Positions 1-54,364 of a stretch of 64,000 nt of DNA are shown here, piece after piece. Numbering within the stretch: the stretch's first letter is position 1; each line of letters opens with the position of its first letter. Under the pieces are notes generated by a model. That model searched no databases and had not been told where the DNA came from. It saw only the letters and a list, made by a program, of their open reading frames with translations. The DNA lies in assembly GCF_000027125.1 (NCBI RefSeq), contig NC_017626.1; one strand, written 5' to 3'. The stretch is from Escherichia coli 042. GTDB lineage: Bacteria > Pseudomonadota > Gammaproteobacteria > Enterobacterales > Enterobacteriaceae. Position numbers and translations under genes: made by a program.

Positions 1-985
1 GCGTTTTGCTTTTCTGACTCAGGGCGGAGCGGCACCAGAAACGCCAAATCCGCGCCTGCCACCACTCGATTCCGGCATTCTTGGCGGCTACATTGCGCCC
101 GATAATCTCACCATAACGTTATCGGTGGGCCACTCATTGTTTGATGAGCGCTTTGGCCTTGCGCCACAGATGCCGAAAAAGTTGCAGAAGATGACGCGTT
201 TCCCCAACGACTCGCTAGATGCAGCGTTATGTCATGGTGATGTGTTGCTACAAATTTGCGCCAACACCCAGGATACGGTGATCCATGCGCTGCGCGATAT
301 CATCAAACACACGCCGGATTTGCTCAGTGTGCGCTGGAAGCGGGAAGGGTTTATTTCCGATCACGCGGCGCGTAGTAAAGGCAAAGAGACGCCGATAAAT
401 TTGCTGGGTTTCAAAGACGGCACTGCCAATCCCGATAGCCAGAATGATAAGTTGATGCAACAAGTGGTGTGGGTGACGGCAGATCAGCAGGAGCCTGCGT
501 GGGCTATCGGCGGCAGCTACCAGGCGGTGCGGTTGATTCAGTTTCGGGTGGAATTTTGGGACAGAACGCCGCTGAAAGAACAGCAGACGATATTTGGGCG
601 TGATAAGCAAACCGGCGCGCCGCTGGGAATGCAGCATGAGCATGATGTGCCTGATTACGCCAGCGATCCGGAGGGGAAGGTGATCGCGCTGGACAGCCAT
701 ATCCGGCTGGCGAATCCCCGCACGGCGGAGAGTGAGTCCAGCCTGATGCTGCGTCGTGGCTACAGTTATTCACTGGGCGTCACCAACTCCGGACAACTGG
801 ATATGGGGCTACTGTTTGTCTGCTATCAACACGATCTGGAAAAAGGCTTCCTGACAGTACAAAAAAGGCTCAATGGCGAAGCGCTGGAGGAATACGTTAA
901 ACCTATCGGCGGCGGTTATTTTTTTGCGCTGCCGGGGGTGAAGGACACGAACGATTATCTCGGAAGCGCGTTATTGCGGGTTTAA
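1..985 (+). CDS. efeB: Dyp-type peroxidase EfeB, 5'-truncated by window edge (C-terminal ~328 codons present)
   Basis: Reading frame is open from position 2 to the stop at 985; the ORF-track M at 125 is internal. Translation matches the Dyp-peroxidase family. Confidence 0.85.
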
Positions 986-994
986 TGTTTTCAG

Positions 995-1125
995 GCGGAT
1001 AAGGCGTTCGTGCCGCACCAGGCGTTCGTGCGCTGATGCGACGCATGCGCGTCTTATCATGCCTACAATCGGTGCGGGTCGGTAGGCCGGATAAGGCGTT
1101 CACGCCGCATCCGGCAAGCTTTTAC
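995..1125. repeat. REP/BIME cluster (repetitive extragenic palindromes) in the efeB-phoH intergenic region
   Basis: Repeated GGATAAGGCGTTCGTGCCGCA / GCCGGATAAGGCGTTCACGCCGCATCCGGCA palindromic units. Confidence 0.8.
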
Positions 1126-1167
1126 CAGCCCTGCGAATCCTGCTGAAAGCACACAGTTTTTTTATCA

Positions 1168-1186
1168 CTGTCATCACTCTGTCATC
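1168..1186 (+). promoter_or_regulatory. Pho box (PhoB binding site) upstream of phoH
   Basis: Tandem CTGTCAT-N4-CTGTCAT direct repeat about 150 bp upstream of the phoH start. Confidence 0.7.
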
Positions 1187-1334
1187 TTTCCAGTAGAAAC
1201 TAATGTCACTGAAATGATGTTTTATAGTTAAATATAAGTGAATATAATGTTGCAATGAATGCGAGATCTGTTGTAATTATTAAGTAGCAGCGGAAGTTCC
1301 CGGCAGTGATAGTCAGTCACTATGGAGATCGCGG

Positions 1335-2399
1335 ATGGTAACGTCCTGTAGTGGACATGTTTTAGATAATCAACGCGCCACCACTCGCGGAGATTTCTCC
1401 TCCGGTAGTCATCTCGTCACTTTGCATTTTCAACCTCATCCTTTCTTTTCTTGTGTTACCGACGCCGTAAACGGTGCGCGTAGCCGTTTTTCGGCATTTT
1501 ATCCAAAAGCAAACTATGGCTTACAAGGAAGCCAACCCTCTGATGTTCGTGCGCATAATCGCGCTGCCAACGGCGCGTGTGATGAATACAAACAACTCAA
1601 GGTGCTCTCCATGGGAAGACAAAAAGTAGTGATCAAAGCTCGTCGCGAGGCAAAACGTGTGCTGAGACGGGATTCGCGCAGCCATAAGCAGCGTGAAGAA
1701 GAATCGGTCACCTCGCTTGTGCAGATGAGCGGCGTAGAAGCCATTGGTATGGCCCGCGACAGTCGCGATACCTCGCCCATCCTCGCGCGAAATGAAGCGC
1801 AATTGCACTATCTGAAGGCTATTGAGAGTAAGCAGCTGATATTCGCCACGGGCGAAGCCGGGTGCGGAAAAACCTGGATCAGCGCAGCAAAAGCGGCAGA
1901 GGCCCTGATACATAAGGATGTCGACAGGATTATCGTCACCCGTCCAGTTCTGCAAGCCGATGAAGATCTTGGCTTCTTACCTGGAGATATCGCAGAAAAG
2001 TTTGCTCCCTATTTTCGTCCGGTCTACGACGTGCTGGTCCGGCGCTTAGGGGCTTCTTTTATGCAGTACTGCCTGCGACCGGAAATAGGGAAGGTGGAAA
2101 TTGCGCCGTTCGCCTATATGCGTGGACGTACCTTTGAAAATGCAGTCGTCATTCTTGACGAGGCGCAGAATGTGACTGCCGCGCAAATGAAAATGTTTTT
2201 AACCCGCCTCGGGGAGAACGTGACGGTTATCGTCAACGGTGATATCACGCAATGCGATTTGCCTCGCGGCGTGTGCTCCGGATTAAGTGACGCGCTGGAA
2301 CGTTTCGAAGAAGATGAAATGGTCGGCATCGTCCGATTCGGTAAAGAGGATTGCGTACGTTCGGCACTTTGCCAACGTACGCTACATGCATACAGTTAA
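1335..2399 (+). CDS. phoH: PhoH, phosphate-starvation-inducible ATPase
   Basis: 354-aa ORF with Walker A motif GEAGCGKT; PhoH family. Confidence 0.9.
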   Translation: MVTSCSGHVLDNQRATTRGDFSSGSHLVTLHFQPHPFFSCVTDAVNGARSRFSAFYPKANYGLQGSQPSDVRAHNRAANGACDEYKQLKVLSMGRQKVVIKARREAKRVLRRDSRSHKQREEESVTSLVQMSGVEAIGMARDSRDTSPILARNEAQLHYLKAIESKQLIFATGEAGCGKTWISAAKAAEALIHKDVDRIIVTRPVLQADEDLGFLPGDIAEKFAPYFRPVYDVLVRRLGASFMQYCLRPEIGKVEIAPFAYMRGRTFENAVVILDEAQNVTAAQMKMFLTRLGENVTVIVNGDITQCDLPRGVCSGLSDALERFEEDEMVGIVRFGKEDCVRSALCQRTLHAYS

Positions 2400-2417
2400 G
2401 TGTATTATCGGCGCAGA

Positions 2418-2446
2418 GCCCGGGCGAACCGGGCTTTGTTTTATTT
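2418..2446 (+). terminator. Rho-independent terminator after phoH
   Basis: GCCCGGGCGAACCGGGC hairpin followed by a T-run. Confidence 0.7.
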
Positions 2447-2985
2447 CATTAACAGCAAAGACTTTCACTTCAGGTTAACGTTCAGGGGGGCGACTTTGAG
2501 CGTGTTGATAAGCTGAAATGAATTCTGGTTTAGATACTCTTACCAGGCATTTTTCGTCATAGCACCCGACCAGTGTAATGCCGCCAGCGCGGAGAGTTTT
2601 TCTTCCAGAAGCCCAAAAAGCGAGTATCTGCCTATCTTTTTCCAGCCATTCAACCTGTACAGGAGGTCTGGTGCCAATTTTGCGTATGAGGTTTAATCAA
2701 CAATGGGCCAAAATTTGACTGACTGATTAACACCGAATATATTCTCCTGATTTTTTTTAGGGATAATATTAAAAATATAAGGTTAATCTTAATTAATTTT
2801 TTGGCTAATATTGTGTGTTGTTATTTTTTGTGGACGGCAAGCCGCAATGGCAAAATAGGGATGGTTGTAATAATCAAAACATGATACTAACTATATATAG
2901 ATCGTTGAATTGTTGGCATGTAACTCGCTACAGCGAGTAGCGTTAGTAATGAAATATAATCAACATGGATAGGTGAAGATTAATT

Positions 2986-3672
2986 ATGAGCTTTATGGTT
3001 TTTGTAACTTGTTTGACAATTGCATTTGTCGCCGGTTTTGCTGTTGCCAGAAAATTGACACTCCGAAAAGTTGCCTCATCGGTAATCATCACTAAATCGC
3101 AACCAGTCCCTTCCTCTGCAACTTCCCCTGCTGCTAAGGCGTCGACAAGGAGCTATACACCGCAGAAAACCTATCGTGACTCTCGTTGGCAAGAACGAGA
3201 TGAGTTATTTCAGGGAATGGTTGCCGAAGGTATTTTATTGGAAGGAAAAGAGTGGTTAATTACGCGTTGTGAAAAAATCTATTTTGATAATCTGGAGAAA
3301 TGGTTTGGACATTATTGTCATATCCATTGCCAGGTCTCTCTGGGGCGCTTGATCAACTTTCCAGAACAACCCGAGTTTAGCGAAGAAGAAAGAAAGCGTT
3401 TCTTTGCAATTTATAATGGAATGGCAATGGATTATGTTCTGGTTTCAAAGAAGAACAACAAAATAGTCTGTGTTATTGAGCTGGATGATCCGAGTCATGA
3501 AAGGGCAGATCGCATTATTCGTGACCGTTGGTTGAATACGATTATGACTATTGCACGGGTGCCTTTTGTACGAGCTTCTGTCACTAAATTGGATGAAATC
3601 CCTCCGGTCTGGGATACCCGTGACAAAATTCGCCCATTAGCCGTGGCGACAAAGGGTGAACCGTTGCATTAA
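2986..3672 (+). CDS. Hypothetical membrane-anchored protein with a C-terminal DUF2726-like (PD-(D/E)xK nuclease-like) domain
   Basis: 228-aa ORF. N-terminal hydrophobic helix (FMVFVTCLTIAFVAGFAVA), then a Ser/Thr/Pro-rich linker, then a C-terminal domain with the motif VIELDDPSHERADRIIRDRW. Preceded by about 300 bp of AT-rich DNA. Family assignment is from motif recall only. Confidence 0.6.
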   Translation: MSFMVFVTCLTIAFVAGFAVARKLTLRKVASSVIITKSQPVPSSATSPAAKASTRSYTPQKTYRDSRWQERDELFQGMVAEGILLEGKEWLITRCEKIYFDNLEKWFGHYCHIHCQVSLGRLINFPEQPEFSEEERKRFFAIYNGMAMDYVLVSKKNNKIVCVIELDDPSHERADRIIRDRWLNTIMTIARVPFVRASVTKLDEIPPVWDTRDKIRPLAVATKGEPLH

Positions 3673-3765
3673 CTAATGTACCCCGGTCGGGGCTTCTCAT
3701 CCCCCCGGTGTGTGCAATATACGAAAAAAAAAGCCCGTACCTTCGTACGAGCTCTTCTTTAAAGA

Positions 3766-3853
3766 TGGCGGTGAGGGGGGGATTCGAACCCCCGATACGT
3801 TGCCGTATACACACTTTCCAGGCGTGCTCCTTCAGCCACTCGGACACCTCACC
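3766..3853 (-). tRNA. serX: tRNA-Ser (anticodon GGA)
   Basis: Minus-strand 88-nt sequence GGTGAGGTGTCCGAGTGGCTGAAGG...GGTTCGAATCCCCCCCTCACCGCCA, with long variable arm and CCA end. Confidence 0.9.
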
Positions 3854-4047
3854 AAATTGTCGTTCCTGTCTTGCTGGAACGGGCGCTAATTTAGGGAAAT
3901 CATGACCTGAGGTCAACAAACTTTTTTAAAAAATCGCGCGTTTATTCAAACTTCAATCAATATGCAGTTTTAATAAGCGAAATCTGCTTTTTTTGCCACC
4001 GACCACGGATTTGTTATGCTGGTGGTCTTTGTAGATCATAACGATAA

Positions 4048-7051: not shown

Positions 7052-7885
7052 TCAGGATTCCGGTGGAACCGACATATGGCGGTATTTCACCAGAATGTCA
7101 TTCTGCCGTTCTGCTTTATTTTGCAAATCCCACAGACCACGGTCGATACCATCATTAATCAGGAAAATGACCCCTGTTTCGATAGCCGACATCAGGCACA
7201 GCATCACGGGTTCGTTCGAGGTGTAACCCACTTCCCCTTCCAGCAAGCGCTGATAGTCAATAAAGCGGAAAACCCCGGCCTGAACTTCATAGGAAAGTAT
7301 CGTCTTACTGGTGTTCACCGAGGAGAGGATCTCACCGGTACTCACATTGACGACGCGCAGGTTCACGGCAATCTGATCGAGCTGGTATTGCGTGTCGGCA
7401 CCGATCCCAAAATATCTTGCCCCAACACCGCCCGATTTAACGTTGCTTTCATAACCGATAATCGAACCTTCAACCATGATATTTGCCGCCGTTAAAGATT
7501 GCAGCGGGATTCGGTTATTAATGGCAACCGTGCCGTTTTCTTGTGCCGCACGAATAATCTTGCGCTCGTTAAGCAGGTTTTGTAAGCCCTGGCGCTCCAG
7601 CGGTATAAACCAGCGAGAATCTTTCAATGCCGTGACCAGCATTGCCGTGGCGCTTTGCGGAACAGCAGTGGAGAAGTTACTTGCCGGGTAAGGTTTAAAT
7701 TGCCCGGTTTCGTCCTGAATGTTGTATACCGAAACAAAGATCTTACCCGTCGGCGCTGGCAGATGGGTCAAATCTTTGTAGCTCTGAGCACGAGGCATTA
7801 ATGTCGGTCTGGCGGCTTCTTTAGGCGGGGCGGTTAAGCATCCGCTCAGTAACATGACGGCAACCAAAAGAAATAAGCGCTGCAT
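7052..7885 (-). CDS. csgG: Curli secretion channel lipoprotein CsgG
   Basis: 277 aa, lipoprotein signal (LLSGC), last gene of csgDEFG. Confidence 0.92.
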   Translation of the reverse strand: MQRLFLLVAVMLLSGCLTAPPKEAARPTLMPRAQSYKDLTHLPAPTGKIFVSVYNIQDETGQFKPYPASNFSTAVPQSATAMLVTALKDSRWFIPLERQGLQNLLNERKIIRAAQENGTVAINNRIPLQSLTAANIMVEGSIIGYESNVKSGGVGARYFGIGADTQYQLDQIAVNLRVVNVSTGEILSSVNTSKTILSYEVQAGVFRFIDYQRLLEGEVGYTSNEPVMLCLMSAIETGVIFLINDGIDRGLWDLQNKAERQNDILVKYRHMSVPPES

Positions 7886-23007: not shown

Positions 23008-24060
23008 ATGCCAGTGTTACACAACCGCATTTCCAACGACGCGTTAAAAGCCAAAATGTTGGCTGAGAGCGAACCGCGAACCACCATTTCGTTTTACAAG
23101 TATTTCCACATCGCCGATCCTAAGGCGACCCGTGACGCTTTATATCAGCTGTTTACCGCGCTGGATGTTTTTGGGCGAGTGTATCTGGCGCATGAGGGCA
23201 TTAACGCGCAAATCAGCGTACCTGCGAGCAATGTTGAAACATTTCGCGCGCAGCTTTATGCCTTCGACCCGGCTTTAGAGGGCTTACGCCTGAATATCGC
23301 GTTGGATGATGACGGGAAATCCTTCTGGGTACTGCGCATGAAGGTCCGTGATCGTATCGTTGCCGACGGTATTGACGATCCTCACTTCGATGCCAGCAAT
23401 GTGGGTGAGTATCTGCAAGCGGCGGAAGTGAACGCCATGCTTGACGATCCCGATGCATTGTTTATCGACATGCGTAACCACTATGAGTATGAAGTGGGGC
23501 ACTTTGAAAACGCGCTGGAAATTCCGGCAGATACCTTCCGTGAGCAGTTGCCAAAAGCAGTCGAGATGATGCAGGCACATAAAGATAAAAAAATCGTCAT
23601 GTACTGCACCGGCGGCATTCGTTGTGAAAAAGCCAGTGCCTGGATGAAACATAACGGATTCAATAAAGTCTGGCATATCGAGGGCGGAATTATTGAATAC
23701 GCCCGCAAGGCGCGCGAGCAGGGTTTACCGGTACGTTTTATTGGCAAAAATTTTGTTTTTGACGAGCGGATGGGCGAACGTATATCTGATGAGATTATCG
23801 CGCATTGCCACCAGTGCGGTGCGCCGTGCGACAGCCATACCAACTGTAAAAATGATGGCTGCCACCTGCTTTTTATTCAGTGTCCAGTATGTGCGGAAAA
23901 ATACAAAGGTTGTTGTAGTGAGATTTGCTGCGAAGAAAGCGCGTTACCGCCTGAAGAACAGCGACGCCGTCGGGCAGGACGTGAAAATGGCAATAAGATC
24001 TTTAATAAGTCTCGTGGACGTCTGAATACAACACTGGGCATTCCTGATCCAACAGAATAA
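23008..24060 (+). CDS. trhO: tRNA uridine(34) hydroxylase TrhO (rhodanese domain, YceA)
   Basis: Start at [10 protein letters not shown] (350 aa); rhodanese active-site Cys (CTGGIRC) and C-terminal Cys-rich tail. Confidence 0.88.
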
Positions 24061-47249: not shown

Positions 47250-48034
<785 letters not shown>

Positions 48035-48120
48035 AAATATATCCTTCGGCTTTGCATGGATGATAATTATACAGCGCATGTAACGCTAATGTCATTACAA
48101 CAAAGATGCTACCCTGAAAT

Positions 48121-52932: not shown

Positions 52933-53687
<755 letters not shown>

Positions 53688-53791
53688 ATCAGCATACTTG
53701 TCCTTAGCCTTCTGCAGTGACAGCTGGTAGTACAGCGTGCTTCTGGCCAGCCCTGCAGCCTTTAACAGGTCAGACTGGCAGTGTCCGCACC

Positions 53792-54322
53792 TCAGGCTCC
53801 GGATGACTTTCGTTTTTTCTCCAGCTCCTGGCGCTTTTTTTCCAGGAGATGCTCCTGCATGGCTTTCAGATATGCATTTTCTGCGCGAAGATAACGCAGC
53901 TCATTCTTCATCTCTTCCGGCGTCATGTTTGCCTCGTTTTCATGGGTATCATCAGAACGGGTCATGCTTTTCTCCTTCCTGCGCCTGATAAAGGCCTCAT
54001 TACCAGATTTGCGGTAGCCTTTTATCCAGTTTTTAACCGTGTTGTGGCTGGGAATGTTAAACCGGGCAGCTACCCGGGGTAGAGACTCAGAATGCCCGAG
54101 AGCATAAAGAACCACGCAAAGTTTATCTTCAGGAGAATAGCTACGCTTGTGTCTGCAATCCAGTGCCCGAGGACCGTGAAGAAGAAAAAGATTAATCCAG
54201 TGTGAGAGGCTGGTGTGAGAAAGTTGAAAGAGTTTTGCCGTAGAAATGATGCCTGCATGACCAGCCAGGTAATGATTTACAGCGGCAAGTTTTACTTCAA
54301 ATGAATGTTTCATAAACTGCAC
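53792..54322 (-). CDS. IS3-family transposase OrfA (HTH DNA-binding subunit)
   Basis: 176 aa with a leucine-zipper-like C-terminus; slippery A AAA AAG near the 3' end for a -1 frameshift into orfB. Confidence 0.85.
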   Translation of the reverse strand: MQFMKHSFEVKLAAVNHYLAGHAGIISTAKLFQLSHTSLSHWINLFLLHGPRALDCRHKRSYSPEDKLCVVLYALGHSESLPRVAARFNIPSHNTVKNWIKGYRKSGNEAFIRRRKEKSMTRSDDTHENEANMTPEEMKNELRYLRAENAYLKAMQEHLLEKKRQELEKKRKSSGA

Positions 54323-54364
54323 CTTCAGATGTCAGATTATGTCCAACATTTGGGGTGCAGTTCA

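Follow-up and report, generated by a model that had tools for sequence, protein, structure and literature searches.

Does the tandem CTGTCAT repeat between efeB and phoH serve as the Pho box of a PhoB-dependent phoH promoter, and how large a share of phoH control does it hold? The window analyzed here, the whole 64-kb stretch of DNA, is a piece of E. coli chromosome that is about 99.3% identical to strain 118UI along its length and carries, in this order, efeB (125-985), REP elements, phoH, a DUF2726 gene, tRNA-Ser, ghrA, ycdXYZ, csg, opg/mdo, the flg operons, rne, and the fab cluster. We identified the open reading frame 3' of the repeat as phoH by its matches to Pfam PhoH (PF02562, 3.5e-76), which spans residues 149-353 of the 354-aa frame, and to the NCBIfam PhoH equivalog (NF007827, 8.7e-154), which spans residues 101-353; the RefSeq annotation agrees. 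The end of efeB lies 183 bp upstream of the repeat on the same strand, so that no gene diverges from the repeat, and phoH is therefore its sole candidate target.

The Pho box and its conservation

The following features, all on the plus strand, make up the box, the promoter assigned to it, and the conserved part of the gene.

1168 to 1174, plus strand: promoter-distal Pho half-site CTGTCAT, read directly
1179 to 1185, plus strand: promoter-proximal Pho half-site CTGTCAT, read directly
1168 to 1185, plus strand: whole 18-bp Pho box, the site for one PhoB~P dimer, assigned by exact match, matrix score, and identity with K-12
1196 to 1201, plus strand: putative -10 hexamer of promoter P1, GAAACT, weak, exactly 10 bp past the box
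1611 to 2399, plus strand: phoH core coding sequence, 262 aa, a PhoH-family ATPase (Pfam, NCBIfam)

Read directly, positions 1168 to 1185 are CTGTCATCACTCTGTCAT, in which an exact CTGTCAT occurs twice, with starts 11 bp apart and the spacer CACT in between. The marks of a Pho box, namely, two 7-bp direct repeats near CTGTCAT with an 11-bp period in an 18-bp unit, are thus all present, and both heptamers are exact. A preliminary description of this DNA had noted tandem CTGTCAT copies spaced 11 bp apart, and these were borne out at 1168-1174 and 1179-1185. Its span of 1168-1186 takes in two registers, the classical box at 1168-1185 and the published ChIP-seq motif TGTCATCACTCTGTCATC at 1169-1186, whose 18-mer is closed by base 1186, a C.

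When both strands of the 64-kb window were searched for CTGTCATNNNNCTGTCAT at 0 mismatches, we obtained a single match, and none of 100 dinucleotide-preserving shuffles contained one. With 3 mismatches allowed, 8 matches were found versus 4.3 expected, which is not above chance, and for this reason only the exact site is remarkable. We also scored the window with a log-odds PhoB matrix, for which Table 1 of Fitzgerald et al. 2023 supplied 58 ChIP-seq sites, phoH being left out. On this leave-one-out matrix, the box reached 18.6 bits and ranked first in the window over both strands, ahead of matches at 16.1 and 14.7 bits. A score of 18.6 bits would place the phoH box 6th among the 58 training sites and was attained in 1 of 200 first-order Markov simulated windows. 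The box therefore scores highly on a matrix made from independent in vivo sites, and the PhoB recognition pattern that the preliminary description had seen in the repeats, with a PhoB matrix scan proposed as the check, was recovered by that scan.

The 18-mer is identical to positions 1084825-1084842 of K-12 MG1655 (NC_000913.3), and in its vicinity, the window and K-12 differ only by a 1-base change in a T run on its 5' side and a few substitutions on its 3' side. Fitzgerald et al. 2023 (PMC10294691) reported a PhoB-FLAG ChIP-seq peak in K-12 with its center at 1084845, a ChIP score of 11, and the motif TGTCATCACTCTGTCATC; the peak center is 11 bp off the center of the box. By its identity with this ChIP-seq-bound site, the box is expected to be occupied by PhoB in vivo, and the strain from which the window derives would behave like K-12. 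In low phosphate, phoH RNA measured 37,076 in the wild type versus 13,375 in a phoB deletion mutant, a significant, 2.8-fold difference, and sigma70 occupancy at phoH was >2-fold lower in the phoB deletion mutant (PMC10294691). A phoH promoter-GFP reporter was induced on phosphate depletion, with a leaky, high basal level that its authors ascribed to the presence of one inducible and one constitutive promoter (bioRxiv 10.1101/2020.01.26.920280). The preliminary description had taken phoH to be inducible by phosphate starvation and had named a reporter under phosphate limitation as the check; the published K-12 reporter, RNA, and occupancy data all support this. The analysis thus confirms that the assignment is correct and that the site was already known: it is the PhoB box of phoH, a textbook example from the pho regulon. 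The box itself adds nothing new, as both binding and regulation have been shown in K-12, and it serves here as a positive control: a real transcription-factor site that was recognized from sequence alone.

Within the species, the 216-bp phoH promoter region was found in 5,417 of 5,426 complete E. coli genomes, and 5,381 of these genomes matched at least 80% of a 53-bp probe over the box (1160-1212). In the divergent E. coli strain YZ22PE165, similarity to the window starts exactly at the Pho box. To extend the comparison beyond E. coli, one genome per species was scanned, which gave 80 phoH loci, 70 of them evaluable for the box, from more than 15 genera of Enterobacteriaceae (Escherichia, Citrobacter, Enterobacter, Lelliottia, Kosakonia, Pluralibacter, Yokenella, Trabulsiella, Phytobacter, Raoultella, Klebsiella, Kluyvera, Pseudocitrobacter, and others). 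In 63 of the 70 loci, the best PhoB-matrix match (9.4-18.8 bits) preceded the conserved ATG by 159-170 bp; in six of the seven exceptional loci, the matrix had picked a repeat pair displaced by one 11-bp unit. The hexamer pattern NANNCT followed 10 bp past the box in 63 of the 70 Enterobacteriaceae loci.

Among 27 distinct orthologous boxes, the T, G, T, and final T of the proximal half-site never varied, and the penultimate A differed in one, giving TGT(C/A)AT. An alignment of 17 genera likewise showed the proximal TGT and A to be invariant, together with the A, C, and T of the -10 hexamer, while the distal half-site varied more between genera than the proximal one. No alignment between genera could be made 5' of the box, in contrast to the TGT..AT cores and the hexamer, which were kept. 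The box is thus retained in orthologous promoters whose flanks have diverged, and its conservation has also been reported by Fitzgerald et al. 2023 (PMC10294691). In E. albertii NBRC 107761 (locus positions 1330-1350) and Escherichia sp. MOD1-EC7003, the distal CTGTCAT is lost and the proximal copy alone remains, and the best PhoB-matrix scores in the 500 bp upstream were 3.7 bits and 5.8 bits, respectively. The E. albertii box looks like the product of a deletion of one 11-bp repeat unit, and PhoB control of phoH is predicted to be weak or lost in both lineages.

Promoter layout upstream of phoH

The box lies on the phoH strand, and its distance of 10 bp to the hexamer GAAACT recurs at phoA (TATAGT), phoB (CATAAT), and the promoter-proximal pstS box (TATTTT) in NC_000913.3. 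All four hexamers share A as their second base and T as their sixth. From this layout of box, 10-bp gap, and hexamer, it follows that the Pho box takes the position of a -35 element. Judged by spacing, by conservation, and by the coordinates of Park et al. 2013, the P1 start would be near 1208, with the box at about -41 to -24 relative to it.

The phoH promoter has a history in K-12. In 1993, Kim et al. reportedly used S1 nuclease to map two phoH starts, footprinted PhoB on the P1 box, and saw transcription from P2 that did not depend on PhoB. Park et al. 2013 cite this original description of the promoter (J Bacteriol 175:1316). This K-12 P1/P2 tandem promoter is the same locus as the one analyzed here, and its box is identical.

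RNA polymerase is recruited to PhoB promoters by a head-to-tail PhoB~P dimer that makes contact with sigma70 region 4. At phoH, a shortage of phosphate would lead PhoR to phosphorylate PhoB, and a head-to-tail PhoB~P dimer would then settle on the two CTGTCAT copies, with one monomer per 11-bp turn. In this position, it would take the -35 place 10 bp upstream of the poor -10 hexamer GAAACT, recruit sigma70-RNA polymerase, by analogy through contact with sigma70 region 4, and so start transcription from around 1208 (about 1207-1209). We consider it almost certain that 1168-1185 is the Pho box of the PhoB-dependent phoH promoter P1, at which a PhoB~P dimer recruits sigma70-RNA polymerase in the -35 place.

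In its main traits, the phoH box resembles those of pstS, phoA, and phoB: it is an 18-bp unit of 7-bp repeats with an 11-bp period on the coding strand, bound by PhoB in vivo and PhoB dependent. It differs from them in its spacer, CACT, compared to the A/T-rich AAAG, AAAT, or AAAA; in its weaker -10 hexamer; in having one box versus two at pstS; in its ChIP score of 11 versus 38 for pstS and 20 for phoA; and in the effect of a phoB deletion, which is 2.8-fold at phoH versus roughly 200- to 900-fold in the pstS/phoA/phoB class. Three of these traits speak against the P1 assignment, namely, a spacer that is not A/T rich as in the strongest boxes, the weak hexamer, and an effect of PhoB on RNA that is just 2.8-fold. 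The modest induction is accounted for by what lies immediately downstream, a second promoter, P2 (start at about 1283), and an ArcA-P operator (1203-1256).

A different mechanism at the same box would be that PhoB binds it yet mainly relieves silencing, for example, by H-NS, rather than recruiting polymerase directly. Shimada et al. 2014 marked the efeB-phoH spacer “HNS,” and in an hns deletion background, no difference in sigma70 of >1.5-fold was found at phoH between phoB+ and phoB deletion strains (PMC10294691). The authors of that study, Fitzgerald et al. 2023, put the hns deletion result down to reduced sensitivity, however, and the phoH site is not flagged as H-NS bound in their Table 1 (PMC10294691). 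In addition, the spacing from box to -10 is that of PhoB promoters with direct recruitment, and this geometry is conserved. We therefore regard relief of silencing as improbable and retain direct recruitment at P1.

The region downstream of P1 contains three further elements on the plus strand, two of which are alternative assignments of the constitutive promoter.

1203 to 1256, plus strand: ArcA-P operator, with GTCAC at 1205, a 22-bp gap, and repeats at 1227, 1238, and 1249, 11 bp apart
1250 to 1277, plus strand: candidate P2, with a -35 element TTGCAA at 1250-1255, a 16-bp spacer, and a -10 element TGTAAT at 1272-1277
1221 to 1248, plus strand: promoter-like TTTATA-16-TATAAT, the alternative constitutive promoter, with 10 of 12 consensus matches

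Table S4 of Park et al. 2013 gives the K-12 ArcA site as ATGTCACTGAAATGGTG...TTGCAAT, and 3 of the operator's 54 positions read differently in the window. ArcA-P protected -80 to -21 relative to P2 in a DNase footprint, and phoH was derepressed 25-fold in an arcA deletion mutant (Park et al. 2013). Back-calculated from the footprint coordinates, the P2 start would fall near 1283, which fits TTGCAA-16-TGTAAT, and the TTGC and TGTAnT of this candidate are invariant in 17 genera. TTGCAA-16-TGTAAT (1250-1277), overlapped by the ArcA operator, is a likely candidate for the constitutive promoter. The other candidate for this role is TTTATA-16-TATAAT (1221-1248). It was the only strong match in a consensus promoter scan, and Shimada et al. 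2014 listed TTTATA-16-TATATT in the efeB-phoH spacer as a promoter used by RpoD holoenzyme alone; the -10 element is a perfect TATAAT in the window (1243-1248) compared to TATATT in K-12.

ArcA-P operators are built like Pho boxes, in that a regulator of the OmpR/PhoB family reads direct repeats that recur every 11 bp, and one such operator lies in the phoH promoter region. The repeats at 1168-1185 might accordingly be an operator chiefly for another member of that family, such as ArcA, which also uses TGT-type repeats 11 bp apart. ArcA-P footprints 60 bp of the region, the 25-fold rise of phoH in the arcA deletion mutant would suit such a reading, and the orthologous box in other genera, TGTTATATTTCTGTAATA, resembles ArcA repeats. 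This explanation is excluded, however, by the published footprint, which like the published site begins at ATGTCAC (1203), downstream of the Pho box. Moreover, PhoB itself was cross-linked at the box in vivo in the K-12 ChIP-seq experiment, and the E. coli half-sites carry TGTCA, the PhoB core, not TGTTA. The ArcA-P operator of phoH is instead a separate, repressive site with TGTTA-type repeats, and the Pho box lies beyond its footprint; we hold it very improbable that the box belongs chiefly to ArcA or a relative. Finally, although 3-mismatch matches are no commoner in the window than expected and PMC10294691 describes most E. coli PhoB ChIP sites as inert, the chance that the box is a fortuitous match or one of many transcriptionally inert PhoB sites is close to nil, as its exact sequence is unique and absent from all 100 shuffles, it is intergenic, correctly oriented and spaced to the -10 hexamer, and conserved across genera, and significant PhoB-dependent changes in RNA and sigma70 have been published (PMC10294691).

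The Pho box of P1 is one input among several. PhoB changes phoH expression about 3-fold, compared to about 25-fold for ArcA. This refines the earlier reading: the share of phoH control that falls to PhoB is modest, given the constitutive promoter, the repression by ArcA, and the long leader that come between the box and the conserved part of the gene. The distance from the box to the start of the conserved PhoH core is 443 bp, and the leader in front of the core carries conserved RNA structure.

The phoH leader

Two start sites, the frame between them, and two hairpins describe this leader, again on the plus strand.

1324 to 1337, plus strand: Shine-Dalgarno sequence GGAGA (1324-1328) and ATG (1335-1337) of the K-12-style 354-aa frame
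1335 to 1610, plus strand: translated leader or “N-terminal extension,” 276 nt, 92 codons, an open frame without a coding substitution pattern
1599 to 1613, plus strand: Shine-Dalgarno sequence AAGGTG (1599-1604) and ATG (1611-1613) of the conserved PhoH core, the PGAP start
1518 to 1533, plus strand: hairpin 1, GGCUU-ACAAGG-AAGCC, from RNAalifold and pair counts, invariant in 65 distinct sequences
1560 to 1577, plus strand: hairpin 2, CGCGCUG-CCAA-CGGCGCG, with a variable loop, from RNAalifold and pair counts

In NC_000913.3, phoH is annotated as 354 aa from the ATG that corresponds to 1335, whereas PGAP gives 262 aa from 1611 in all other genomes inspected. Both starts are conserved: GGAGATCGC with its ATG (1324-1337) is invariant across genera, and AAGGTG with the core ATG is invariant in 65 sequences. 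We compared the substitution patterns on the two sides of the core start in 73 loci. Codon-position variability in three segments of 1335-1610 was 0.23/0.30/0.28, 0.33/0.26/0.31, and 0.086/0.080/0.088, compared to 0.002/0.002/0.127 from 1611 on, where three-base periodicity starts. Pairwise comparisons showed the same contrast, for instance 0.27/0.27/0.34 in the extension versus 0.07/0.03/0.42 in the core for Enterobacter, and the PhoH core has 92-95% amino-acid identity across genera.

The frame that opens at 1335 contained 0 stop codons in all 73 loci, while the other two frames contained 0-7 and 1-11 stops. It was fused in frame to the core in 48 of the 73 loci. In the remaining 25, which include Citrobacter, Kluyvera, and several Escherichia lineages, among them E. 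albertii, E. whittamii, and E. coli E69, the leader was out of frame by 1 nt and ran to a stop codon 22 nt past the core ATG, counted from its first base. As the loci were chosen with the 354-aa query, the sample could be biased slightly toward open frames, but loci with partial matches behaved alike. Eight further loci comprised one fusion, two with a stop at +22, four whose stop precedes the core ATG by 23 nt, and one without upstream sequence; the upstream ATG was present in seven of the eight, and all seven fit the same open-frame pattern. An ordinary coding sequence is ruled out for the extension by its nonperiodic substitutions and the 25 frameshifted loci, and plain noncoding DNA is ruled out by a frame that is never interrupted.

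In the last 96 nt of the leader (1515-1610), conservation exceeds that at synonymous sites of the core, and both hairpins lie inside this part. For hairpin 2, we found compensatory changes in 5 of 7 pairs, with 97.8% of cells paired. None of 500 shuffles attained any of five measures, and slid controls were 20-51% paired. A lower stem of hairpin 2 that had come from single-sequence folding was dropped, as the alignment gives it no support. Hairpin 1 gives no covariation signal for or against pairing because no position varies. Its ACAAGG loop presumably resembles a CsrA site. The single-sequence fold of 1500-1640 was no more stable than shuffles (z = -1.1), and a scan of 950-4000 at E <= 1 assigned the phoH leader to no Rfam family. 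A search of the literature on phoH together with CsrA, a UTR or sRNA, or an upstream open reading frame returned nothing relevant. On the minus strand (1534-1517), hairpin 1 also drew a terminator-like call. A paper on NAD capping confirmed that the phoH transcript carries an NAD cap.

We tentatively propose, as a serious candidate that may well prove wrong, that the act of translating the leader, and not its peptide, controls initiation at the core start. By this proposal, the ~400-nt stretch would be an undescribed regulatory leader, and the 354-aa PhoH of K-12 would be a lineage-specific fusion. The route could be translational coupling, unmasking of the core ribosome-binding site, or protection of the transcript from Rho, and the roughly 400-nt leader would ride on both PhoB-driven and P2-driven phoH transcripts. 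If the leader is regulatory, it would explain the disagreement between the 354-aa and 262-aa annotations, the leaky and context-dependent reporter, and posttranscriptional tuning of PhoH, a protein of still unknown function.

Other PhoB-matrix matches and neighboring features

The second-best PhoB-matrix match in the window, TGTAACGCTAATGTCATT at 48079-48096 (16.1 bits), lies between rne and a pair of genes that resembles a toxin-antitoxin pair, consisting of a GNAT acetyltransferase and a DUF1778 protein at ~47250-48100, between flgL and rne. We rejected this match as a Pho box, as it points away from both neighbors and is without ChIP support. It is more likely an operator of the GNAT/DUF1778 pair, because it lies within the inverted repeat TGTAA...TTACA. 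The next match, at 7085-7102 (14.7 bits), was likewise rejected as a Pho box, being inside the 3' end of csgG and without ChIP support. A weak intragenic PhoB ChIP-seq site of K-12 in yceA/trhO (GATAAAAAAATCGTCATG, ChIP score of 1) is unchanged in the window at 23584-23601.

Several features flank phoH itself. REP-type palindromic repeats occupy 986-1124, between efeB and phoH, and a query that contained them gave a median of 35 matches per E. coli genome versus 1 for the promoter alone; Rfam naRNA4 gave two subthreshold matches here, at 993-1063 and 1085-1119. Antisense to the 3' end of phoH, at 2201-2394 on the minus strand, RF02855 (Ysr251, a Yersinia antisense sRNA) scored 191 bits relative to a gathering score of 100, a match that probably reflects the conserved phoH coding sequence rather than an sRNA here. 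The region that follows phoH (2400-3860) holds the DUF2726 gene (2986-3672) and, directly after it, tRNA-Ser (3766-3853, minus strand). In K-12, pgaD comes right after phoH, while the window has no pga genes between phoH and ghrA.

Relative to strain 118UI, the IS200 between fabF and pabC (~61650) is missing from the window, and a 1.43-kb insertion is present between rluC and yceF (52933-54364). The insertion carries two overlapping minus-strand open reading frames of 176 aa and 240 aa, an arrangement that, judged by layout alone, is reminiscent of an IS3-family element.
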